From the IMG/VR virus record IMGVR_UViG_2671181055_000011: DNA of 48,393 nt; one strand, given 5' to 3'. The translations under genes were made by a program, and so were the position numbers. The notes beneath the pieces were generated by a model, which searched no databases, had not been told where the DNA came from, and saw nothing but the letters and a program-made list of their open reading frames with translations. This DNA comes from a virus. Taxonomy: Duplodnaviria; Heunggongvirae; Uroviricota; Caudoviricetes. Of the stretch, positions 2,794 to 44,684 are shown piece by piece; position 1 is the stretch's first letter, and the number at the start of each line of letters is the position of its first letter.

Positions 2794-5386
2794 TTGCATA
2801 TTCCTTAGCCCAGCGGGGCAGTGATAACGTCTTAATAGCTGGCCATTCATCGGTATTGAGGCAGTCAGCCAGGGTTCGCAGATTGCGGTGATATTCCAGC
2901 TGACCTGCCAGTTTTGCTTCTTCGCCCATCATGAAAATTTCAACCGGATAACGTCCGCATTCAATAGTTGTGCTGGCAACCAGAAAAACGAAAGTTGGCT
3001 GCACTCCAAACTGTGCTTCATAACCGTCACTGTAGAATGCATCCTGAACGTGATAGCGGTAGTCGTAATAAGCGGTTTTGAATCGTTGAATATCCGCCGT
3101 AGTTTTCACGTCCATGATCCAGTGAAATTCAGGGATAATTTTGTCCGGACGGCACCGACACAAAATTGCTGTTTCAGGATCTTCCCAGTAAATTGATGAT
3201 TCAGCGTGTCCGGCGCTTTCAACAAGCCATTGCCCCAGCGGCAAAGCCATAACGCTCTGATACATGAGTTCAATTTTCCGGCCTTCTTCGGCAGTGATAA
3301 CCGTTTTTCCTGTGCTTGCGCATTCCCTCAGAAACGCTTTCTCTTCTTCTTTTCCGGAGTTTGTCCGGCGGTTAAATTCAGGTGCTACGATAAAGCGGTT
3401 ACTGAATTCTTCCGGCTCAAGTACCCGGCAGTGGAAAGCGGTTCCTAAATCGAGCGTTTTTGTCTTTGTGGTGTCCACGGGGGCATTTTTACGCCACAAA
3501 TACAGTGCCGGAGTATCAGCAATGTCATCGAGCTGAGACTTACTGACACCGGGACCCGCGTGGTAATTCTCATTCGAAATTCCGTAATAAATACCTGGCT
3601 CTATGTCTTCTACGATTACGGGATCTGCGACTTCGCCAGTTTCATCACTGCAATCGCGATGCGGATCGCTGCCAGCATTCTCATTGTGCGGATGTTCAGC
3701 GCCTTCCATTTCCTCCGGATCATTTTCCTTAGCTTCAACCTGACTCTCTTCATCGAATGTTTCCTGGTATGTTGCGTCGCCCATCACCGCACCACAGTCA
3801 GGGCAGTTATCCCCGCCAGTCTGGCCGCAGGCATTGCAGGCTATTTCCGGTTCCTGTTGCACTACTGGCTCAGGTTGATTCATATCCGGGCTGGTTTTTT
3901 CCGTTTCTGGCTGGTTCTGGTACACACAATCGCGAGTCTGGATCCCCTTTACCCATTTCGGATCGTTCGGGTCGCTAATTCCGTCAACAAATTCACCACG
4001 TGATGCAGCAAGCAATTTATCGGCATCGACAGGATTTTTTGATGGAATGTTTTTCCGGGCTTCATGGAGTTCTGCCCGCAGTTCCTGATATTTCGCATCA
4101 ACAGAATTTACCTGTGACTGAGCATCCAGCGGCTGCGTGTCCTGATGATGTTCAGTTGCGTCCGGTTCCATTGTTTCAGCCTCTCCCTGTTCAACTGCCG
4201 TTGTTCCAGATGGTTGCGGTTTTTCTTCATCATCCTGTTTTCCTTCTTCTGTTACTCGCTGCGGCATCGGGGCAGAGGAGCGACCGCAGGCAATATCCAC
4301 GATTTCCGGATCAGGGTTGGCATGATCGGTTTCAGTCAGTACTTTGTTCAGATATTCAGTGACGTGCGCGGGGATGACCTCGATCCCAATTGGTGCTTCT
4401 TTTACGGACGCAACCACGATGGCGCGGGAATAATCCAGCCCGCCAGGCATGGTGATGAATTTGTCGCGGAAAACAGAAAAGGGCGGTTTATTTTCAGCGA
4501 TAATTTCCTCAATGCGTTTAGCGTGTGCCGGATGAAGGTTATAGATGTCCAGATCCATTGAACGGGCCAGTACGCCAGTGGCTACGTCCCGCGCCAGTGA
4601 CGTCAGATCGTGTACGAAACCTTCGCCGCGATCGGTGAGGTTTCCGCCGCCAGCATTAGCACCGGAAGCCGTGCGAGTGATGTGTGAAACACGATTACCC
4701 TTCATCCACTCTTTTGTCAGCAGTCCTCGATCGGTGTAGTCAGCGTTCAGGTATGCTTCGAAAAAAGCAGTTATCAGTCCCAGGTTTGAATTACCAGGAT
4801 TAGGGAAAACTTTGTCAGTGTCACGAACCAGTTTGTGGAGTTCGCGAATTTCCAGCGGGTCGAGCAGGCTGGTTTTGTGGGAAACAGCCAGGGCAGTAAC
4901 AGCCGGTAGTTCTTCAGCCCGAGCAATGTGTAATGCCTGGAGTCCGTCGCGTGAAACGTGCGTTACCGGTTTTTCGCTGCCGTGTTGAGCAAGCCAACGA
5001 ATGGGCAGTTCCTGGCCAGAAATTGGGAGTAGCATATTCTCCTCAATCTCAGTCATGTCTTCGCCGTTGACGTTGGTATTGCCTTGATAGTGAGCGTTGT
5101 CTGGTGCTGCTCCCGGTTTTAGTTCCCATGTCATGGAGTCTTTGCTGAGTTGATAGCGTTCACTCCAGGTAAAATCGATCTCACCTTCAGCGGGCAGGTC
5201 ATTAACGACAGGAAAATTCGTGGCAACAGCTTTAAAATAGCTGCTCAGTTTTTTACCTGACTTAACGATCAGGTAGTCCAGAGTGGCACAGGTCGATTCA
5301 AAATCGTTGCTTGCCCACAGGACGACGTCAGGTTCACCGGATGATTTTTTCGCTTTCCGTAACAGGAAGAGTGGTTTTGTGCTCAT
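2786..5386 (-). CDS. recE: RecE exonuclease VIII
   Basis: 866-aa ORF directly upstream of and overlapping recT; length equals K-12 RecE from memory. Confidence 0.9.
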
Positions 5387-6229: not shown

Positions 6230-6670
6230 AATTATCTCCATTTTTACAAATGAACTTTGTTGATGCGGTGCCTGGTGCCTCCAGGTGACTGCAACCAGTT
6301 AACAATTACAGTCGGCTTTCCCACCCAAACCAATAAGGACTAACATGACTTTTAACTGTGCCACGTGCGCTTAGCCGCATTCACCGCATCACAAAATTCA
6401 CTTTAAAAAGGGCGGACATCAGCCGAACTTCAAGAAAAAAACTGATGCCGCCAGGACTACACACAGCAATGTCGTTATTTACAACCGGAGGCGCACTCCC
6501 ACCATTTAAATTTAACAGACAAGACCGACTCTTTATGGATATCGGAAATGCGCCTTCGTGTTGTGCCCGGTTTTATTTCACCACCTCCGGGCTTCGGTGG
6601 TCTCGGCTATACCCCTACAGCGAGAGCTTGTGTTAACATTTCAATACCCTTACAGTTGAGAGTTATTGAT

Positions 6671-7159
6671 ATGTTGGATGTATTTACTCCATTGTTGAAA
6701 CTTTTTGCTAACGAGCCACTCGAAATACTTATGTATACGATTATCATTTTTGGTCTCACTCTCTGGCTGATACCGAAAGAGTTTACTGTCGCATTCAATG
6801 CTTATACTGAAATACCTTGGCTCTTTCAGATTATCGTTTTTGCCTTTTCTTTCGTGGTCGCCATTTCCTTCTCAAGATTGCGAGCACATATTCAAAAGCA
6901 TTATTCATTACTACCAGAGCAACGAGTATTGCTTCGTTTATCTGAGAAAGAAATCGCTGTATTTAAAGATTTCCTTAAAACAGGAAATCTTATTATCACT
7001 TCTCCTTGCCGTAACCCGGTTATGAAAAAATTAGAACGGAAGGGCATCATTCAACATCAGAGTGATAGCGCAAACTGTTCTTATTATCTCGTCACCGAAA
7101 AATACTCCCATTTTATGAAGTTATTCTGGAACAGCAGGAGTAGACGTTTTAATCGTTAG
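6671..7159 (+). CDS. sieB: SieB superinfection exclusion protein (membrane protein, 162 aa)
   Basis: Start at MLDVFTPLL inside ORF 6548-7159; hydrophobic N-terminal half; length matches K-12 SieB from memory. Confidence 0.8.
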   Translation: MLDVFTPLLKLFANEPLEILMYTIIIFGLTLWLIPKEFTVAFNAYTEIPWLFQIIVFAFSFVVAISFSRLRAHIQKHYSLLPEQRVLLRLSEKEIAVFKDFLKTGNLIITSPCRNPVMKKLERKGIIQHQSDSANCSYYLVTEKYSHFMKLFWNSRSRRFNR

Positions 7160-10236: not shown

Positions 10237-10589
10237 NNNNNNNNNNNNNNNNNNNNNNNNNNNNNNNNNNNNNNNNNNNNNNNNNNNNNNNNNNNNNNNN
10301 NNNNNNNNNNNNNNNNNNNNNNNNNNNNNNNNNNNNNNNNNNNNNNNNNNNNNNNNNNNNNNNNNNNNNNNNNNNNNNNNNNNNNNNNNNNNNNNNNNNN
10401 NNNNNNNNNNNNNNNNNNNNNNNNNNNNNNNNNNNNNNNNNNNNNNNNNNNNNNNNNNNNNNNNNNNNNNNNNNNNNNNNNNNNNNNNNNNNNNNNNNNN
10501 NNNNNNNNNNNNNNNNNNNNNNNNNNNNNNNNNNNNNNNNNNNNNNNNNNNNNNNNNNNNNNNNNNNNNNNNNNNNNNNNNNNNNNNNN
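10237..10589. other. Run of 353 N (masked or unresolved sequence)
   Basis: Literal n characters. Confidence 1.
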
Positions 10590-11807: not shown

Positions 11808-11945
11808 ACGTTACTAGATCAAAGAGCATTAGTTCATATGTAAATTGACATTTTTCTGGCACAGGGGAGAGCTAGCGTGGTTGTCCGCTTTGTGCCAATA
11901 GCGGACATTGCTGGCTCATGGTATGTTAGTTTAAGGAGGCAGGTT

Positions 11946-12968
11946 ATGCCCTGTATTTCGCTGTGGTATAATAGTTGCGCAATTGATACAAGGGAGCGTT
12001 ACATCGTGAAAATTGTTTTCGAGGTTAATGGAAAGAAAGTTCCACTAAAATCTTTAAAATACATAAGCAAAAAAGATCAACTCGAAGTAATGAAAAACTG
12101 GTTCTTTGAAAACTTTGAAGATCCGGCAAATGCTTGTCCGTATGAAAGTAGAGAAGGTGGCTATGCTTACATATATGGCGGGCCGTATGATGCGAGCGAA
12201 GAACTACAATCCATCTTCGGTCAATATGTTAAATCTGAGTATATTGAGGAATTAGTAGATGAATTACAAACACAATGTTTTGACTGGTCTGGAAACTCAA
12301 ATAATATAGATGATTGGTACGATGATGATATCTACGACGCTGTAACGTCTTCCGGTAATCCGTATTTAAAATTCATTGATAATATCGATAAAATAAAAAA
12401 ACTTGCAAAAGATAAAACTGAACAACAGCAAAAAAACCACTTGCTTAGTTTGCTCTACACGAATGTTATTACAGCTTTGGAAACGCTTTATGTTGAGCTA
12501 TTCATTAATTCTATAGAGAAAGATGATGTCTACATAGCCAATTGTATAGAAAAAGGTAAGACTGAATTTAAAGTAAGCAAAGATATTGCTGCGTTGCCTT
12601 TCAAGGGTGAACCCATCGAGAAAATTAGGGGAGAGCTAATCAGGTCAATCAAGGAACACTTGATCAGTGCAAGCTGGCATAGCACTAAAAAGGTAATCGA
12701 CCGCTATGAAGCTACATTCGATATAAAAGTACAAAAAGACTGTCCGATAGAAGCTATTGAATTGGCAACCCTCAATCGAAATCACTTAGTGCATCGTGGT
12801 GGAAAGGATAAAGAAGGGAACCTCGTAGTGATTACAGACCAGGATCTTGAAACGCTGATTGAAAATGCATCGAACCTGGCAATTATGCTCTACAACAGTT
12901 TAAATGTAGCAACGAATAAAACCACCATTTTGCAACCAGATGACAAACCGTTCATTCATGAATTTTAA
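11946..12968 (+). CDS. AT-rich accessory protein with C-terminal RNxxxH (HEPN-like) motif; candidate Abi/RNase-type effector
   Basis: AAGGAGG RBS (11933-11939) 6 nt before ATG 11946; motif R-N-H-L-V-H encoded at 12777-12794; a 100-nt sample (12006-12105) is 29% G+C by my count versus roughly 50% in flanking phage genes. Confidence 0.6.
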   Translation: MPCISLWYNSCAIDTRERYIVKIVFEVNGKKVPLKSLKYISKKDQLEVMKNWFFENFEDPANACPYESREGGYAYIYGGPYDASEELQSIFGQYVKSEYIEELVDELQTQCFDWSGNSNNIDDWYDDDIYDAVTSSGNPYLKFIDNIDKIKKLAKDKTEQQQKNHLLSLLYTNVITALETLYVELFINSIEKDDVYIANCIEKGKTEFKVSKDIAALPFKGEPIEKIRGELIRSIKEHLISASWHSTKKVIDRYEATFDIKVQKDCPIEAIELATLNRNHLVHRGGKDKEGNLVVITDQDLETLIENASNLAIMLYNSLNVATNKTTILQPDDKPFIHEF

Positions 12969-12983
12969 TAGCGCAGGTCATAC

Positions 12984-13985
12984 ATGGATATTCGCACACG
13001 AAAGACAAAATTTTTAGAGTCGTTAGATTCAACTGAAGTGATACGCAAAGCAGTAAGTCTCGCTATAGATTGCATTATTGATAATCATAATAGTAATGAA
13101 GATACCCCCTTAGTTATTACCAGCTATGATGATCTCTGTAGAATCCAGGTGCTAAATTATGTACAGGAGTTTTGCGAAGCTGCATTCCCTGATATGGATG
13201 AATATTACTTTAGTCCTAACATACTTCGCATCAACGGCAAGACTAGTGAAGAAGCTTGTATTAACTTAATTAAACTCTTAAGAAGTACAAAAGGCATGCT
13301 ATTCTGGTCCGATGCCCCATCGTGGTTCGCTAGCCTCCCCGACGGATTATTCCATGTTGTTAACATTGATCAAAAAATCGTTACTCGCGGCCTTAATAAG
13401 AAAAACTCTAAGCCGACAATAATCAATAAAGATTACAGTGTAGATACACTACTATCAGAGCTATTTTTGAATGGCGCACACATGGAGCAACCCAACGTAC
13501 ACAACGTTTCTGAGGGAAACATGAAGTTCTATGATGAATGCCATGCTGGATTAATCAGACCAATACCCGCTCCAATAGGCGCGTCATACGATGAAGAGAT
13601 CACAATTAATTCTCCAGATTGGCAAAAGCTCGCGTGTGTAGCTTTACGCCGCTATCAGTCGAAGGAATGTCATGACGGAATGCAATGGGATACAACCGAT
13701 CATGGTTGGACTGATGTAATCGCGTATCCATTCGTCGAAGAAATACAATCAATGGATAATAGTGGTTATCGACAATGTTTAGTTGGGCTGGTCACAATAA
13801 ACAATTCAAATGCAAATTCTCCGTACCTATCTACCGTTTGGATACATCCATTTTATCGCAGGAGAGGGTTATTAAGTAAGTTATGGCCAAAATTACAAGA
13901 GTTATATGGAAGTAACTTCGAAATTGAGCGACCTAATGAAAATATGAAAGCATTTCTGAAAAGTGCGAAACACGCAGATTACTAA
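12984..13985 (+). CDS. AT-rich accessory protein with C-terminal GNAT-like acetyltransferase motif
   Basis: Starts 15 nt after previous stop (operon); motif VWIHPFYRRRGLLSKLW resembles GNAT motif A (V-x-P-x-Y-R/Q-x-x-G-x-G/A). Confidence 0.6.
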   Translation: MDIRTRKTKFLESLDSTEVIRKAVSLAIDCIIDNHNSNEDTPLVITSYDDLCRIQVLNYVQEFCEAAFPDMDEYYFSPNILRINGKTSEEACINLIKLLRSTKGMLFWSDAPSWFASLPDGLFHVVNIDQKIVTRGLNKKNSKPTIINKDYSVDTLLSELFLNGAHMEQPNVHNVSEGNMKFYDECHAGLIRPIPAPIGASYDEEITINSPDWQKLACVALRRYQSKECHDGMQWDTTDHGWTDVIAYPFVEEIQSMDNSGYRQCLVGLVTINNSNANSPYLSTVWIHPFYRRRGLLSKLWPKLQELYGSNFEIERPNENMKAFLKSAKHADY

Positions 13986-16357: not shown

Positions 16358-16647
16358 TGGTGAATTTACGTAAAGCGGCTAAAGGCCAGATGTGCCAGAT
16401 CAGAATCCCTGGCTACTGCAATCACAATCCCGAAACCTCTGTGCTGGCGCATTACAGGCTGGCGGGGACGTGCGGAACAGCGACAAAACCACATGATATG
16501 CAGGCGGCGATAGCCTGTAGCTCATGCCACGATCTAATCGACGGGCGGGTAAAAACCAGCGATTACACCAAAGAAGAATTGCGCCTGATGCATGCTGAAG
16601 GGGTTTTTCGCACACAAGAAATCTGGAGAAAGAAAGGTCATTTATGA
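16357..16647 (+). CDS. YbcO-like (DUF1364) Cys-rich putative nuclease (96 aa)
   Basis: Recalled similarity to DLP12 YbcO; Cys motifs CQIRIPGYC and CSSCHD; start overlaps upstream stop (TAATG). Confidence 0.65.
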   Translation: MVNLRKAAKGQMCQIRIPGYCNHNPETSVLAHYRLAGTCGTATKPHDMQAAIACSSCHDLIDGRVKTSDYTKEELRLMHAEGVFRTQEIWRKKGHL

Positions 16648-17186
16648 TTTACCCAACGAATACAGGAAAAAGCGGAGAACACCTTCGCCTCACCACGCTG
16701 GAAAGTGTCTGGATTCAGGGAAAACTACGTATGTGGGGGCGCTGGTCGTATATTGGCGGTGGCAGGTCAGGGAATATGTTCAATCAGTTGTTGGCATCCA
16801 AAAAACTGACGAAAACAGCCATTAATGAAGCCCTGCGCAGAATGAAAAAAGCGGGAATAGAGAAAGCTGAGCTGGAAGCGTTTTTGCGAGAGATGATCAA
16901 CGGCAAGCAAAAGAGCTGGCTGGCGCATTGTACTGATGCAGAGGCGTTATGTATTGATCGAGTCATAAGTGAGGTGCTGGCAGAGCATCCAGGATTGATT
17001 TGCATTCTCCGGCAACGCTATGAAGGGCGGGGGATGACTAAGCGCAAAATGGCTGAATTGCTAAATGATGCACACCCAGAGTGGTGTTTTAGCACATGCG
17101 AAAAACGGATTGCTAATTGGTTAGCTGTTGCTGAGTATGCCCTATATATTCCCATGCGTGAATCATTTGCTGAGAAAATGGCTTGA
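16644..17186 (+). CDS. Putative late-gene antiterminator (Q-like), assigned mainly by position
   Basis: Last gene before the terminator/late-promoter region and lysis cassette; start overlaps ybcO-like stop (ATGA). Confidence 0.45.
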   Translation: MIYPTNTGKSGEHLRLTTLESVWIQGKLRMWGRWSYIGGGRSGNMFNQLLASKKLTKTAINEALRRMKKAGIEKAELEAFLREMINGKQKSWLAHCTDAEALCIDRVISEVLAEHPGLICILRQRYEGRGMTKRKMAELLNDAHPEWCFSTCEKRIANWLAVAEYALYIPMRESFAEKMA

Positions 17187-17265
17187 TTTCTTACGTATAA
17201 ACTGCTTCAATTTTGCTATGCTTCGCAAAGCTGTATCGCGAGGCGGATTGCAGACATGGACATCG

Positions 17266-17293
17266 TAAAAAAACCGCTTAATGCGGTTTTTTT
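17266..17293 (+). terminator. Intrinsic terminator downstream of the Q-like gene
   Basis: aaccgc-ttaat-gcggtt hairpin followed by T-run; A-run upstream. Confidence 0.6.
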
Positions 17294-17580
17294 ACGTCAG
17301 GAAAGCAGGGGAGAATGCTGCTAGTTGGGCAACTGGTCTTTCTGCTCCAAATTATAACAGAGACCAGTTATAGTTTCGGTGCTGTGTTTTTTTTACAATA
17401 TTGTGATAACACATTGCTGGCGGGAGTTTTGATATTTCTTGGCAGGGGCTGATGATGCGTTATCCTGATGTCGTCAACTCATATAAAATGAGATGAGAGA
17501 TCATTGCAGGGTGGTTTGTAATTCGCTGTTTAGCGGGACAATATGTTGTCTGATACAAGACACCCGACGCCTCAGATTAC

Positions 17581-17586
17581 TATAAT
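17581..17586 (+). promoter_or_regulatory. TATAAT hexamer, candidate -10 of late promoter (pR'-like)
   Basis: Perfect -10 consensus about 30 nt upstream of a terminator hairpin, the arrangement expected for Q-dependent antitermination; no convincing -35. Confidence 0.3.
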
Positions 17587-17613
17587 AAAGACGAAGCATC
17601 CTTTGTATTGACC

Positions 17614-17639
17614 AACCGCCTGTTTAGGCGGTTCTTTTT
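17614..17639 (+). terminator. Intrinsic terminator (candidate tR')
   Basis: aaccgcc-tgttt-aggcggtt hairpin followed by ctttttg. Confidence 0.5.
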
Positions 17640-18171
17640 GGGCTGGTTTATTGTATGCCAAATGATTATTAAAAAGGTTGTGTTAATAACAAGATCCGAA
17701 ATAATATGCCTGCATATTTTTATCTTGCTTATATTCTGCATATTGTGCATAGCAGGCTCATCCCTGCAATCAAAACTGTATGATGAGTATTTTTTGTTTT
17801 CCTTTTTTCCAGTCATCTGATGATGACCTGCTTCTTTTTAATCCGGATCGACATCAGTTTTTTAAGATAATTCCTGCGAGTTATATGCATAAATGCCACA
17901 AACTCCGCATTTTATGTGGTTGGGAGTTGCCGGGCGCGCAGTGAGTTTGCTAAGAAAACTCCTGCATGGTGAATCCCCCTGTGCGGTGGGGTGATACCAT
18001 TAACCTTTTCTGTCGCCGACAGGTATCACGAACATTTTGTTCACCGGGAGGCACCCGGCACCATGCACTTCAATAGATTCTCTCCACATTATGGATATTC
18101 TTTCAGAATATCCCACGCAGACTTTGTGTAAATGTTAACAAATGTGCGTTTTATTTGATCTGATTCGCTGT

Positions 18172-18201
18172 TTGAGCGTCCAAAACAACGGTATATATAA
18201 T
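18172..18201 (+). promoter_or_regulatory. Candidate sigma70 promoter of lipoprotein moron (-35 ttgagc, -10 tataat)
   Basis: ttgagc 18172-18177, 18-nt spacer, tataat 18196-18201, about 30 nt upstream of ATG 18231. Confidence 0.35.
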
Positions 18202-18230
18202 CCTTTACTATATGACATATGTGAGGAAAA

Positions 18231-18659
18231 ATGGGTTTTCGTAGCGCATCAATTCTTACGTTGATTATTAGTGGGATTATTATCGGGTGCACTGATGCTG
18301 TATCGACAAATTATCATGACCGTACATCATATTACTCCGATAAAGCAATAGAGACACAGTATGTGAGTTCATCTGAACGTACTTCTGATGTTAGTGAGGA
18401 TATCCGTCTGTATGCCCATCAAATCAAGAGCGCCATCGAAAAACAGTTCGGGGATGCGAGTAAGTATTCAGGAAAAGAGTGTACACTGAGAATGCATATG
18501 GCCCCGAATGGCCTTCTACTGGAGGTTAAAAGAGAAAGTGGAGACCTCGATTTATGTCGTGAAGCGATGAATGCGATAAAGAATGCTGATATACCTGCCC
18601 CCCCTTCGCCGGAAGTATATAAAGTATTTCAAAATGGGGTGCTGGATTTTAAACCCTGA
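18231..18659 (+). CDS. Lipoprotein with C-terminal TolA domain III-like domain
   Basis: Signal peptide plus lipobox IIGC (Cys20); C-terminal 85 aa aligns with recalled E. coli TolA C-terminus (QIKSAIE..YxGKxCTLR..APxGxLL..LC..PxPPSxxVYxVFxNxxLDFKP). Confidence 0.75.
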   Translation: MGFRSASILTLIISGIIIGCTDAVSTNYHDRTSYYSDKAIETQYVSSSERTSDVSEDIRLYAHQIKSAIEKQFGDASKYSGKECTLRMHMAPNGLLLEVKRESGDLDLCREAMNAIKNADIPAPPSPEVYKVFQNGVLDFKP

Positions 18660-18809
18660 TATTTATTGTTTTGTAATAAACGGTTTCGGCTTAGGTTTGT
18701 TCTGACACAGCTACGGCACTGAGCTAAATTTAGCGGATAGTCAGCTCTGAGCCAGTGGCGGACGTAACAACTACTATTGCTGAGATTTTAATGGATTGAG
18801 GAGCAAGAA

Positions 18810-19205
18810 GTGGGATTAAAGAAAATCGTTATGTTGACTTTTTGGGTCGGTTTTGTTGCGGGATGCACACCTTTACACCCTTCAGATTGCCACAAAACTA
18901 CTGCTACAGGTAGTTGCAGTTCAGGACGCTGGGATGATCAGGATGAATGGGGGGCGCAAGCGCGGGGAATCAGAGCTGCAATTAATGCCAAACTTGATGA
19001 GCCGCATAACTGGAAAGGGAAAAAATGCAGGTTGCATATGGAATTCTCTCAGGATGGCACGGCGTTAAAAATATCTACCAGTAACGGTGATAAAGCCTAT
19101 TGCGAAGCGATAAAGTCCGCAGCTCATAAAGCCAAATTTCCGGCCTTCAACAATCCGGAAGTCTACAGAGATTTTCAGAAATCTGGCTTTGACATGCGAG
19201 GTTAG
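18810..19205 (+). CDS. Second lipoprotein with divergent TolA domain III-like C-terminus (paralog of 18231-18659); GTG start
   Basis: GAGGAG RBS 7 nt before GTG 18810; lipobox VAGC (Cys19); shares KxCxLxM...G...L...C....A......P.F..PEVY.DFQ with upstream paralog. Confidence 0.7.
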   Translation: MGLKKIVMLTFWVGFVAGCTPLHPSDCHKTTATGSCSSGRWDDQDEWGAQARGIRAAINAKLDEPHNWKGKKCRLHMEFSQDGTALKISTSNGDKAYCEAIKSAAHKAKFPAFNNPEVYRDFQKSGFDMRG

Positions 19206-19330
19206 CTCTTCAATTACTATATCTCATTCATAGCAAACTGACAGATTTGATGATGTTCTATATACGAAACCTGTGATGTCAAGTCTGAGCTAATACAAAT
19301 AAACATAATATCAGAGAAATACATTTTATT

Positions 19331-19354
19331 AGCTCGCTACGGCGAGCTTTTTAT
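19331..19354 (+). terminator. Intrinsic terminator closing the lipoprotein moron
   Basis: agctcgc-tacg-gcgagct hairpin followed by ttttta. Confidence 0.55.
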
Positions 19355-19456
19355 ATTGCATCGTCTCCAGCATATATATCAATTAAGGCTCTGATTGATG
19401 TGTCTGAAAGCCTACACATAATAACTATGCCATCCGTTCCGTGCGGAGGTGAGGCT

Positions 19457-19672
19457 ATGAAATCCATGGACAAAATTTCAACAGGCATTGCCTACGGCAC
19501 CTCCGCAGGCAGTGCTGGCTACTGGTTTTTACAGTTGCTCGATAGAGTAACTCCGTCACAGTGGGCTGCAATCGGTGTGCTGGGTAGTCTGGTATTTGGC
19601 CTGCTGACGTACCTGACAAACCTTTATTTCAAGATTAAAGAAGATAAGCGCAAGGCTGCGAGAGGTGAATAA
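19457..19672 (+). CDS. Class II holin/pinholin (S21-like, 71 aa) with dual-start motif MKSMDK
   Basis: Translation matches recalled phage 21 S pinholin; GGAGGTGAGG RBS; second ATG at 19466. Confidence 0.85.
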
Positions 19673-20169
19673 TGCCTCCATCATTACGAAAAGTCGTTGC
19701 TGCTGCTATTGGTGGCGGAGCAATTGCTATAGCATCAGTGTTAATCACTGGCCCAAGTGGTAACGATGGTCTGGAAGGTGTCAGCTACATACCATACAAA
19801 GATATTGTTGGTGTATGGACTGTATGTCACGGGCATACAGGAAAAGACATCANNNNNNNNNNNNNNNNNNNNNNNNNNNNNNNNNNNNNNNNNNNNNNNN
19901 NNNNNNNNNNNNNNNNNNNNNNNNNNNNNNNNNNNNNNNNNNNNNNNNNNNNNNNNNNNNNNNNNNNNNNNNNNNNNNNNNNNNNNNNNNNNNNNNNNNN
20001 NNNNNNNNNNNNNNNNNNNNNNNNNNNNNNNNNNNNNNNNNNNNNNNNNNNNNNNNNNNNNNNNNNNNNNNNNNNNNNNNNNNNNNNNNNNNNNNNNNNN
20101 NNGCAATGGAAAGGTCTCATGACTCGTCGTGAGATTGAGCGTGAAATCTGTTTGTGGGGTCAGCAATGA
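19672..20169 (+). CDS. SAR endolysin (R21-like lysozyme); middle masked by N-run 19853-20102
   Basis: N-terminal Gly/Ala-rich SAR segment [18 protein letters not shown]; start overlaps holin stop; stop overlaps Rz start (ATGA). Confidence 0.8.
19853..20102. other. Run of 250 N inside endolysin gene
   Basis: Literal n characters. Confidence 1.
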
Positions 20170-20630
20170 ACAGAGTAACCGCGATTATCTCCGCTCTGGT
20201 TATCTGCATCATCGTCTGCCTGTCATGGGCTGTTAATCATTACCGTGATAACGCCATTACCTACAAAGCCCAGCGCGACAAAAATGCCAGAGAACTGAAG
20301 CTGGCGAACGCGGCAATTACTGACATGCAGATGCGTCAGCGTGATGTTGCTGCGCTCGATGCAAAATACACGAAGGAGTTAGCTGATGCGAAAGCTGAAA
20401 ATGATGCTCTGCGTGATGATGTTGCCGCTGGTCGTCGTCGGTTGCACATCAAAGCAGTCTGTCAGTCAGTGCGTGAAGCCACCACCGCCTCCGGCGTGGA
20501 TAATGCAGCCTCCCCCCGACTGGCAGACACCGCTGAACGGGATTATTTCACCCTCCGGGAACGACTGGTAATGATGCAGGCCCAACTTGAAGGTGCTCAG
20601 CAATACATAACCGAGCAGTGTTTAAAGTAA
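20166..20630 (+). CDS. Rz i-spanin
   Basis: N-terminal TM then coiled-coil-rich periplasmic domain; contains embedded Rz1 in +1 frame. Confidence 0.8.
20386..20571 (+). CDS. Rz1 o-spanin lipoprotein, embedded within Rz
   Basis: Lipobox VVGC followed by Pro-rich mature peptide ([15 protein letters not shown]). Confidence 0.7.
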
Positions 20631-20767
20631 AATCTTAACTACAATATGATTCATTTTGATGATTGTTTCATAAGGAACAGTGAAGTAAGATCTAAGAGGA
20701 GTTAAATTTTATACAGTATAATCATAATATTGCAGCAAGGTGGTTATAATTGAAAGAATATTTAGAT

Positions 20768-22225
20768 ATGAATACATCTCATGTAAGAGTTGTTACTCAT
20801 ATGTGTGGGTTCCTGGTTTGGCTCTATAGTCTTTCAATGTTGCCACCAATGGTTGTAGCATTGTTTTATAAAGAAAAAAGCCTGTTCGTTTTCTTTATAA
20901 CTTTCGTTATATTTTTTTGCATTGGTGGCGGAGCGTGGTATACAACTAAGAAATCTGGCATTCAATTACGTACCCGTGATGGGTTTATTATAATTGTAAT
21001 GTTTTGGATTTTGTTTTCTGTTATTAGTGCATTCCCTTTATGGATTGACTCAGAACTTAATTTAACGTTCATTGATGCTCTGTTTGAAGGGGTTTCTGGA
21101 ATAACAACAACAGGAGCAACTGTAATTGATGATGTTAGTTCATTACCTCGGGCATATTTGTACTATCGGTCACAGTTAAATTTTATAGGTGGTTTAGGAG
21201 TTATTGTTCTGGCGGTTGCAGTATTGCCATTATTGGGTATTGGTGGTGCAAAGCTTTATCAGTCAGAAATGCCGGGGCCATTTAAGGATGACAAACTCAC
21301 TCCCCGCCTGGCCGATACGTCACGGACACTGTGGATAACTTATTCTTTATTAGGTATTGCTTGTATTGTCTGTTATAGACTTGCAGGAATGCCTTTGTTT
21401 GATGCTATTTGTCACGGGATTTCCACAGTTTCGCTTGGTGGTTTCTCAACTCATAGCGAGAGTATCGGATATTTTAATAACTATTTGGTTGAGCTGGTGG
21501 CTGGTTCTTTTTCCCTGCTATCGGCTTTCAACTTCACTCTTTGGTATATTGTTATTAGCAGAAAAACGATAAAACCTTTAATCAGAGATATTGAACTTCG
21601 TTTCTTTCTGTTAATAGCCTTAGGGGTGATCATTGTTACCTCTTTCCAGGTCTGGCATATAGGTATGTATGACTTGCATGGAAGTTTTATTCATTCGTTT
21701 TTTCTTGCCAGCTCCATGCTCACTGATAATGGTTTAGCTACGCAGGATTATGCAAACTGGCCCACGCACACGATAGTGTTTTTGCTGTTGTCAAGTTTCT
21801 TTGGGGGATGTATAGGTTCAACCTGTGGTGGAATTAAGTCACTTCGATTTCTTATACTTTTCAAACAAAGCAAACACGAGATAAATCAGCTTTCTCATCC
21901 CAGAGCGTTGTTGAGTGTAAATGTAGGAGGGAAGATAGTTACAGATCGTGTAATGAGGTCTGTATGGAGTTTCTTTTTTCTTTATACTCTCTTCACGGTG
22001 TTTTTTATACTGGTGTTAAATGGTATGGGATATGATTTTCTTACATCATTTGCAACAGTGGCTGCATGTATTAATAATATGGGATTAGGTTTTGGGGCTA
22101 CTGCATCGTCATTCGGAGTGCTTAATGACATTGCAAAATATTTAATGTGCATAGCTATGATTCTTGGTCGCCTTGAAATTTATCCTGTTATTATATTGTT
22201 TTCAGGTTTTTTTTGGCGCTCCTAA
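20768..22225 (+). CDS. trkG: TrkG potassium uptake protein (TrkH paralog, Rac cargo gene); start at MNTSHVRVV
   Basis: Polytopic membrane protein; translation matches recalled 485-aa TrkG; AT-rich codon usage. Confidence 0.9.
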   Translation: MNTSHVRVVTHMCGFLVWLYSLSMLPPMVVALFYKEKSLFVFFITFVIFFCIGGGAWYTTKKSGIQLRTRDGFIIIVMFWILFSVISAFPLWIDSELNLTFIDALFEGVSGITTTGATVIDDVSSLPRAYLYYRSQLNFIGGLGVIVLAVAVLPLLGIGGAKLYQSEMPGPFKDDKLTPRLADTSRTLWITYSLLGIACIVCYRLAGMPLFDAICHGISTVSLGGFSTHSESIGYFNNYLVELVAGSFSLLSAFNFTLWYIVISRKTIKPLIRDIELRFFLLIALGVIIVTSFQVWHIGMYDLHGSFIHSFFLASSMLTDNGLATQDYANWPTHTIVFLLLSSFFGGCIGSTCGGIKSLRFLILFKQSKHEINQLSHPRALLSVNVGGKIVTDRVMRSVWSFFFLYTLFTVFFILVLNGMGYDFLTSFATVAACINNMGLGFGATASSFGVLNDIAKYLMCIAMILGRLEIYPVIILFSGFFWRS

Positions 22226-40612: not shown

Positions 40613-44090
<3,478 letters not shown>

Positions 44091-44160: not shown

Positions 44161-44684
44161 NNNNNNNNNNNNNNNNNNNNNNNNNNNNNNNNNNNNNNNN
44201 NNNNNNNNNNNNNNNNNNNNNNNNNNNNNNNNNNNNNNNNNNNNNNNNNNNNNNNNNNNNNNNNNNNNNNNNNNNNNNNNNNNNNNNNNNNNNNNNNNNN
44301 NNNNNNNNNNNNNNNNNNNNNNNNNNNNNNNNNNNNNNNNNNNNNNNNNNNNNNNNNNNNNNNNNNNNNNNNNNNNNNNNNNNNNNNNNNNNNNNNNNNN
44401 NNNNNNNNNNNNNNNNNNNNNNNNNNNNNNNNNNNNNNNNNNNNNNNNNNNNNNNNNNNNNNNNNNNNNNNNNNNNNNNNNNNNNNNNNNNNNNNNNNNN
44501 NNNNNNNNNNNNNNNNNNNNNNNNNNNNNNNNNNNNNNNNNNNNNNNNNNNNNNNNNNNNNNNNNNNNNNNNNNNNNNNNNNNNNNNNNNNNNNNNNNNN
44601 NNNNNNNNNNNNNNNNNNNNNNNNNNNNNNNNNNNNNNNNNNNNNNNNNNNNNNNNNNNNNNNNNNNNNNNNNNNNNNNNNNNN
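44161..44684. other. Run of 524 N (masks most of lom)
   Basis: Literal n characters. Confidence 1.

Follow-up and report, generated by a model that had tools for sequence, protein, structure and literature searches.

Two adjacent genes of an Escherichia coli prophage, here called ORF1 and ORF2 (ORF, open reading frame), encode predicted lipoproteins that end in domain III of TolA (TolAIII), and we tentatively propose, putting the chances slightly short of even, that they are unenergised decoys tethered to the outer membrane that would trap the translocation domains of group A colicins and the gene 3 protein (g3p) of filamentous phages. The genes lie in the IMG/VR virus record IMGVR_UViG_2671181055_000011, a stretch of 48,393 nucleotides (hereafter the window) that represents a full-length Rac-like lambdoid E. 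coli prophage. The parts of the two genes, in window coordinates, are as follows.

18231–18659, plus strand: ORF1, TolAIII lipoprotein of 142 residues; ATG start, with GAGG at 18223–18226
18231–18287, plus strand: ORF1 signal peptide
18288–18290, plus strand: predicted lipid-modified Cys20 of ORF1, from the lipobox rule
18291–18374, plus strand: ORF1 linker, modelled at low confidence
18375–18656, plus strand: ORF1 TolAIII domain, from Pfam, NCBIfam and PDB matches
18810–19205, plus strand: ORF2, TolAIII lipoprotein of 131 residues; GTG start, with GAGGAG at 18798–18803
18810–18863, plus strand: ORF2 signal peptide
18864–18866, plus strand: predicted lipidation site Cys19 of ORF2, from the lipobox rule
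18867–18932, plus strand: conserved Cys-rich segment of ORF2
18933–19202, plus strand: ORF2 TolAIII domain, from Pfam and PDB matches

Against the Pfam family for the TolA C-terminal domain, PF06519, ORF1 reaches 82.6 bits (expect value (E) 2.4e-23) and ORF2 54.6 bits (E 1.3e-14), both well above the gathering cut-off of 25 bits. When compared with PDB sequences, residues 55–142 of ORF1 align without gaps to residues 334–421 of E. coli TolA, up to the last residue, with 52 of 88 positions identical (59%, E 5e-28), and residues 51–129 of ORF2 align to TolA 341–419 with 27 of 88 identical (E 5e-9); the match to the domain III region of TolA (residues ~330–421) is therefore significant for both. 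AlphaFold2 models, which are predictions and not solved structures, reach a predicted local distance difference test score (pLDDT) above 90 at residues 49–142 of ORF1 and 42–131 of ORF2, and Foldseek superimposes them, with the α/β fold and three-stranded sheet of the domain, on the solved TolAIII structure 2x9a_B with a root-mean-square deviation (rmsd) of 0.6 Å and a template-modelling (TM) score of 0.96 for ORF1 and of 1.1 Å and 0.90 for ORF2. The stretches from the lipid-modified cysteine to the domain are modelled at low confidence in both proteins. The cysteine pair of domain III, which forms a disulphide in E. coli TolA, is retained at the aligned positions of ORF1 and ORF2 and is invariant in two alignments of relatives. 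The initial annotation had described two paralogous lipoproteins with C-termini like TolA domain III, the second more divergent on the same skeleton. Pfam, the PDB alignments and the model fit establish that the domains are genuine, the lower identity of ORF2 on a closely superimposable fold bears out the divergence, and the paralogy is visible directly (29% identity, E 2e-18).

The N-termini of both proteins satisfy a PROSITE PS51257-type rule, which combines a positively charged N-region, a hydrophobic core and a lipobox of the form [LVI][ASTVI][GAS]C with the cysteine at position 15–35. ORF1 has R4, a hydrophobic core and the lipobox IIGC with Cys20, and ORF2 has K4 and K5 and the lipobox VAGC with Cys19, as had been noted initially. 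Both carry Thr, not Asp, at position +2, from which sorting to the outer membrane, suggested already in the initial annotation, is predicted. The GTG start of ORF2 lies six bases downstream of GAGGAG and is confirmed by the orthologue on plasmid pO157, which has ATG at exactly the same site. In the RefSeq genome NZ_CP033250, where positions 20300–21106 correspond to 18399–19205 of the window, the annotation of both genes appears to be wrong; the start chosen there for ORF2 is a later internal ATG, by which the charged N-region of the signal peptide is lost.

The similarity to TolA is confined to the last ~90 residues of each protein, with the lipoprotein signal peptide at the N-terminus. Indeed, the full-length TolA model NF007065 gives 107.8 bits for ORF1 and 53.7 bits for ORF2 against a cut-off of 213, whereas ORF1 passes TIGR02794 (75.6 bits against 59.45) through domain III alone, which may explain why RefSeq labels it 'tolA'. 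We therefore rejected the possibility that either gene is a true TolA orthologue: neither encodes domain I or II, and both lie outside the tol-pal operon. As they lack the membrane anchor and the long helical domain, ORF1 and ORF2 would not be coupled to TolQ-TolR.

Strand β3 of TolAIII is the site bound by the N-terminus of TolB, by the N1 domain of filamentous-phage g3p and by colicin N, and colicin A binds at β2, at the box 375-LLDIKP-380 (PMC7391070, PMC4339652). In ORF1, β3 reads LDFKP, identical to E. coli TolA, and the colicin A box reads LLEVKR for LLDIKP, a conservative change; the identical β3 and the near-identical box both argue for a decoy. ORF2 has FDMRG for LDFKP and ALKIST for LLDIKP at the same positions, and the decoy idea appears to fit ORF1 better than ORF2 because the binding strands of ORF2 differ strongly from those of E. 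coli TolA. In the solved structure 2x9a, g3p of phage IF1 takes TolAIII as its co-receptor; the primary receptor of IF1 is the I-type pilus.

In the mechanism we propose, ORF1 and ORF2 would be exported, lipidated and held on the periplasmic side of the outer membrane through a linker of ~20–30 residues, so that each displays a stand-alone TolA domain III, the hub used by TolB, g3p-N1 and group A colicins. As the proteins would lack coupling to the TolQ-TolR motor, a bound ligand would not be energised and would end in a dead-end complex. Such a decoy, in effect a dominant-negative competitor placed directly under the outer membrane, could intercept the entry domains of colicins and phages ahead of the real TolA, and would thereby render the lysogen tolerant to Tol-dependent colicins and exclude phages of the Ff/If1 type. 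On conjugative plasmids, which equip their hosts with pili, it would counter pilus-specific filamentous phages. The analysis shows the identity of the domains, the lipoprotein signals, the purifying selection, the mobility of the module and its spread on mobile elements, whereas we infer that the proteins reach the outer membrane, are expressed in the lysogen, bind these ligands and protect the cell. Periplasmic TolAIII offers an experimental precedent: colicin tolerance is said to have been obtained with it by Levengood-Freyermuth et al. in 1993. The leakiness of E. coli cells that export this domain (PMC6195910, citing Wan and Baneyx 1998) likewise serves as a precedent for the decoy.

Both genes are under purifying selection. 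The ratio of nonsynonymous to synonymous substitution (dN/dS, Nei-Gojobori) is 0.26–0.39 for ORF1 overall and 0.11–0.33 within its domain, and 0.07–0.12 for ORF2. G19-C20-T21 is invariant in ORF1 variants at 65–91% identity while the signal-peptide sequence around it varies, and the lipobox is kept in 117 of 119 full-length representatives of the ORF2 family. The selected lipobox, together with the purifying selection, favours a decoy at the membrane. It also bears on the idea that the two ORFs are inert, decaying pieces of a captured tolA, which we regard as very improbable indeed. That idea could draw on the RefSeq (PGAP) record NZ_CP033250, where ORF1 is marked as a pseudogene ('tolA, incomplete, missing N-terminus'), but both have an unbroken frame preceded by a ribosome-binding site and beginning with a lipoprotein signal peptide, the family comprises hundreds of clusters, and at least 80% of a 1.3-kb query region spanning the genes is present in 773 of 5426 complete E. 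coli genomes, nearly always at 99% identity or more (the best match is ≥99% identical in 786 of all records that match the region). The pseudogene reading of ORF1 was accordingly rejected on the intact signals, the invariant lipobox and dN/dS values of 0.07–0.39, all well under 1; with purifying selection on both genes, neither is a tolA pseudogene.

Stand-alone TolAIII proteins extend well beyond this prophage. Searching 1.84 billion cluster representatives with a profile turned up 620 relatives, and of the 149 best that were analysed, 92 are short and stand-alone. A clear lipoprotein signal peptide is present in at least 59 of the 92, none of the 59 with Asp at +2, and a few others have ordinary secretion signals; likewise, no Asp at +2 was found among the lipoproteins of the ORF1 and ORF2 families examined. 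Variants of ORF1 at 91% and 66% identity are found in the Q-to-holin slot of other prophages with no ORF2 beside them. The ORF2 family comprises 370 clusters, with 78–88% identity across Citrobacter, Enterobacter, Serratia, Raoultella, Klebsiella and Shigella, and its members share an invariant segment ahead of the domain, CxPLHPSxCHKTTATGSCSSGRWDDQDEWG, with two further cysteines, which is absent from TolA. The flanks of the ORF2-family gene are mostly unrelated among 41 species genomes; it thus behaves as a mobile single gene, and vertical inheritance in Enterobacter-like genera was rejected on the same evidence. One Serratia locus of the family adjoins GmrSD/HEPN defence genes. Full-length ORF2 orthologues are present on ~600 plasmids, and 488 of the 917 plasmid records with an ORF2 match are typed as conjugative. 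On pO157 the orthologue lies downstream of psiB, psiA and hok, and on IncK2/Z and IncI1/B/O plasmids it follows directly after the relaxase genes nikA-nikB. That each gene is kept without the other, ORF1 variants in prophages and ORF2 orthologues on chromosomes, pO157 and conjugative plasmids, is a further point in favour of the decoy.

The same observations give some room to a different partner, chiefly for ORF2: the TolA/TonB-like fold could serve as a β-strand-augmentation module for a partner outside the known set of TolA ligands, for instance a protein of the outer membrane or a part of the machinery by which the element itself transfers or enters. The limited identity of ORF2 to TolAIII with its altered binding strands, the extra invariant segment with its two cysteines, the very strong purifying selection and the fixed position after the relaxase genes of I-complex plasmids would all suit such a partner. 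However, the ORF2 model fits E. coli TolAIII at 1.1 Å with no other family scoring, the ORF2 family also pairs with a secreted TonB domain (see below), and β-strand addition rests mostly on backbone contacts (PMC4339652), which leaves the known ligands possible despite the changed side chains. Overall, we consider a different ligand rather improbable.

The pairing with TonB C-terminal domains (TonB_C) recurs independently. Beside a cloacin/colicin E3-type operon on Klebsiella plasmids of ~10 kb, a TolAIII lipoprotein (lipobox LTAC) is accompanied by a secreted TonB_C, and in a Klebsiella plasmid and two related loci (L141–L143) a secreted TonB_C precedes an ORF2-family lipoprotein. The secreted domains are ~120–133 residues long and carry signal-peptidase-I signals (L003, 1841–2574; L141, 4550–5399; L142 and L143), and the TolAIII lipoproteins of the two pairings belong to two different subfamilies. 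No function for stand-alone secreted TonB fragments was reported in the literature searched. A TonB match beside an ORF2-family gene in Lelliottia (L115) was set aside as a genuine full-length tonB, not a stand-alone domain. CloDF13 (L144), which older reports are said to have linked to phage interference, was rejected as a carrier of a TolA-like gene: its equivalent slot (3813–4728) holds proteins K and L, the former a lipoprotein whose Asp at +2 predicts retention in the inner membrane. As CloDF13 has proteins K and L where the Klebsiella plasmids have TolAIII and TonB_C, the slot beside the cloacin operon is a variable cargo site. On a Klebsiella pCuAs IncF plasmid (L099, 5229–6258), a periplasmic thioredoxin/DsbA-like protein lies directly upstream of a TolAIII lipoprotein and may be a dedicated oxidoreductase for the TolAIII cysteine pair.

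The C-terminal domains of TolA and TonB have in common that group A and group B bacteriocins, and also phages, exploit them as import hubs. Two independent pairings of TolAIII lipoproteins with secreted TonB_C, one of them beside a bacteriocin operon, therefore favour a decoy. A broader proposal, which we hold to be possible if somewhat doubtful, is that mobile elements widely carry a hitherto unrecognised class of defence made of exported, free-standing C-terminal domains, lipid-anchored in the case of TolA and soluble in that of TonB. With such mimics of both energy-transduction hubs of the outer membrane, prophages, conjugative plasmids and bacteriocin plasmids would trap pilus-dependent filamentous phages, as well as bacteriocins of groups A and B, in dead-end complexes, and for conjugative plasmids this would offset the vulnerability to phages that their pili create.

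Within the window, the pair is embedded in the following features.

16644–17186, plus strand: Q-like late antiterminator (DUF1133; PHROG 753 'anti-termination protein Q-like'; threshold-level Phage_antitermQ match)
18040–19673, plus strand: mobile module of 1.6 kb with the promoter-like site, ORF1, ORF2, the terminator and the holin, from blastn against mEp460_ev081
18172–18201, plus strand: candidate sigma-70 promoter, TTGAGC, 18 nt, TATAAT (10/12, a consensus match only)
18702–18730, plus strand: weak promoter-like site in the ORF1-ORF2 spacer, CTGACA, 17 nt, TAAATT (9/12)
19331–19354, plus strand: intrinsic terminator-like hairpin (19331–19348) and T run in the ORF2-holin spacer
19457–19672, plus strand: S21-type holin (Pfam PF04971 and PHROG lysis families)
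19672–20169, plus strand: endolysin, its middle lost to the N run at 19853–20102
20154–20630, plus strand: Rz spanin (Pfam PF03245, PF06085 and PHROG lysis families for Rz/Rz1)
20386–20571, plus strand: Rz1 spanin (Pfam PF03245, PF06085 and PHROG lysis families for Rz/Rz1)

The order of genes is DUF1367, YbcO, the DUF1133 Q-like gene, ~1 kb without convincing genes, ORF1, ORF2, holin, endolysin, Rz/Rz1 and TrkG. The initial annotation had placed the pair between the Q-like gene and the holin, in the position that stx occupies in Stx phages, with its own candidate promoter and terminator. The flanking genes agree with this, and so does the mobility of the segment, which recurs in lambdoid phages at ~99% identity in company with other Q genes and endolysins: for example, phage mEp460_ev081, available as a deposited phage genome record (mEp460), shares 18040–19673 at 99% identity by blastn and has a different Q gene and endolysin, and among 80 IMG/VR loci homology starts at ~18000–18050 in 39 and ends at ~19650–19700 in 36. 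Downstream of the ORF1 variant of locus L095 come DUF1737-SASA, DUF1378 and DUF826 genes and then the holin, an order that we take to resemble that downstream of stx in Stx phages. The terminator hairpin folds at −13 kcal/mol (z-score −3.4, with none of 200 shuffles folding as well), and the promoter stands as a consensus match: an ORF1-variant locus that is 91% identical (L096) keeps the −35 hexamer and has one A-to-G change in the −10 region. A promoter for ORF2 alone may lie at 18702–18730; the homology of lone ORF2 orthologues to the window starts only ~30 nt 5′ of the start codon.

Other cargo occupies the same slot elsewhere. Upstream of the ORF1 variants, loci L093–L095 (3636–5539) hold a TfpB-family protein and an AraC-type regulator, and L096 and L098 (~3940–4880) hold an IS200-type transposase and a protein resembling PmrD, a connector in polymyxin resistance.

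Between the Q-like gene and the promoter-like site of ORF1 lies a full-length match to the STnc100 small RNA family (Rfam RF02076; 17934–18120, plus strand, 86.6 bits against a gathering threshold of 47), whose terminal hairpin lacks the consensus U-run. Position 18040, where the mobile module begins, lies in the most conserved part of this match. The RNA might be the late-promoter leader of this phage type. Within ORF1 and ORF2 themselves the Rfam search found no RNA, a match to STnc350 at 18791–18861 lying far under threshold.

The position of the pair directly upstream of the lysis cassette and downstream of the Q-like gene is what a modulator of Tol-Pal would lead one to expect. In such a scenario, which we judge unlikely, the tethered TolAIII would bind a host partner, most likely the N-terminus of TolB, weaken the mobilisation of Pal, loosen the outer membrane and raise vesicle output, and the outcome could be help to the release of phage, cargo or bacteriocin, not protection. 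TolB uses the β3 site that ORF1 keeps, the Klebsiella plasmid relative adjoins a bacteriocin operon with a lysis gene, and a passage in PMC6195910, citing Wan and Baneyx (1998), reports that E. coli overexpressing TolAIII in the periplasm becomes leaky and loses periplasmic proteins. However, single-gene copies also reside on chromosomes and conjugative plasmids without lysis or release functions, the terminator downstream of ORF2 would set the pair apart from the holin as a separate unit, and envelope loosening leaves the pairing with TonB_C unexplained. Moreover, the affinity of TolA for TolB is low (dissociation constant (Kd) ~40–200 µM; PMC7391070), so that a modestly expressed tethered copy would compete poorly.

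Besides the altered strands of ORF2, several points weigh against the decoy. The conservation of ORF2 across genera, including its Cys-rich segment (dN/dS ~0.07), looks more like adaptation to one conserved partner than like an arms race. The genes stand at the head of the late operon and may be expressed mainly during lytic growth, when exclusion would be of little use; moreover, promoter-like sites in the region number 11 against 7.6 ± 2.9 in shuffles and are thus not enriched. By titrating TolB, such a decoy could also destabilise the envelope, which would come at a cost, and the decoy function, like localisation, binding and expression, is inferred throughout.

Some further features of the window were recorded. 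A symmetric terminator-like hairpin at 17264–17296 (AAAAAAACCGC...GCGGTTTTTTT; −19.7 kcal/mol, z-score −5.2) lies ~80 nt past the stop codon of the Q-like gene, and within 17557–17645 a promoter-like site (AAGACA, 18 nt, TATAAT; 17557–17586) is followed by a terminator-like hairpin (17614–17633). The gene for a TrkG potassium transporter (20750–22225, plus strand) comes directly after the spanins, as in the Rac prophage of K-12, and forms a second accessory gene flanking the lysis cassette; its guanine-cytosine content is 0.377, against 0.472 for the window. After the replication genes, two cargo ORFs on the plus strand, at 11877–12968 (363 residues) and 12984–13985 (333 residues), give only weak Pfam hints (a HEPN/RES N-terminal domain; GNAT) and no match in PADLOC, and may form an uncharacterised defence or toxin pair; in the otherwise similar prophage of strain ECCHD184, the interval from the replication genes to hokD holds instead genes for a BCCT transporter, a DUF2254 protein, a LysR regulator, a gamma-glutamylcyclotransferase and an MFS transporter. 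The superinfection-exclusion gene sieB is intact in the window (6548–7159, plus strand, 203 residues), whereas an internal stop makes it a pseudogene in the near-identical ECCHD184 prophage. Masked N runs occupy 10237–10589, 19853–20102, 42887–42967 and 44161–44684.

Both ORFs match PHROG 5772, an entry listed as 'unknown function', and neither matches the catalogued defence models of PADLOC-DB v2, on which grounds a known defence system was rejected. A full-text literature search, with most subscription journals outside its scope, returned no functional study and only passing mentions at the level of annotation, such as a variable 1,355-bp segment 'TolA protein, hypothetical protein' among the genomes of uropathogenic E. 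coli (PMC6854850) and a tolA gene on small plasmids of MOB-RNA type 4 (PMC6807383). The initial remark that no characterised phage protein of this kind was known thus holds for function; the domain itself is already public, since RefSeq automatically annotates such genes as 'TolA C-terminal domain-containing protein'. What is new here is the conserved family of mobile-element lipoproteins, its recurring TonB_C partner and the resulting decoy hypothesis. If the hypothesis is true, about one in seven sequenced E. coli genomes would carry an unrecognised determinant of colicin tolerance and filamentous-phage exclusion, which would be present also on the O157:H7 virulence plasmid, on I-complex resistance plasmids and on common Klebsiella bacteriocin plasmids. 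This would change the prediction of bacteriocin and phage susceptibility from genomes, bear on the design of colicin- and klebicin-based antimicrobials and of phage-display hosts, inform how conjugative plasmids cope with pilus-specific phages, and provide a natural reagent with which to probe ligand recognition by TolA.

One of the closest known counterparts is domain III of E. coli TolA itself (1TOL, 1S62, 2X9A, 3QDP/3QDR), with which ORF1 and ORF2 share the fold, clear sequence homology and the cysteine pair. In place of the transmembrane domain I and the helical domain II of TolA, however, they have a lipoprotein signal peptide, and they are borne by a prophage between the Q-like gene and the holin instead of by the tol-pal operon. 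With the morons of the lambdoid Q-to-lysis region, such as stx, they have in common the slot, the promoter- and terminator-like flanks and the exchange as a unit, whereas the cargo would be a mimic of an envelope hub and not a toxin or serum-resistance protein.

In function, the nearest analogues are two exclusion lipoproteins, the g3p-mediated immunity of filamentous phages and the laboratory TolAIII construct. Cor (HK022, phi80 and the mEp phages) and Llp (T5) are small outer-membrane lipoproteins, encoded by phages, that shield the host against superinfecting phages as well as colicins and microcins that share the route. These bind and inactivate the receptor FhuA, whereas ORF1 and ORF2 would mimic a periplasmic hub and bind the invader, and there is no relationship in sequence or fold. 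Boeke, Model and Zinder reportedly found in 1982 that filamentous-phage g3p confers superinfection immunity and colicin tolerance. That immunity would be directed at the same contact between g3p or colicin and TolAIII, against Tol-dependent invaders, but as a mirror image: there the resident g3p occupies the TolA of the host, whereas here a copy of TolA would occupy the incoming g3p or colicin. Finally, the periplasmic TolAIII construct (Levengood-Freyermuth 1993; Wan and Baneyx 1998) resembles ORF1 and ORF2 in placing an isolated domain III in the periplasm with the same dominant-negative logic. The construct, however, is artificial, soluble and overexpressed, whereas ORF1 and ORF2 are natural, predicted to be lipid-anchored, diverged and carried on mobile elements.

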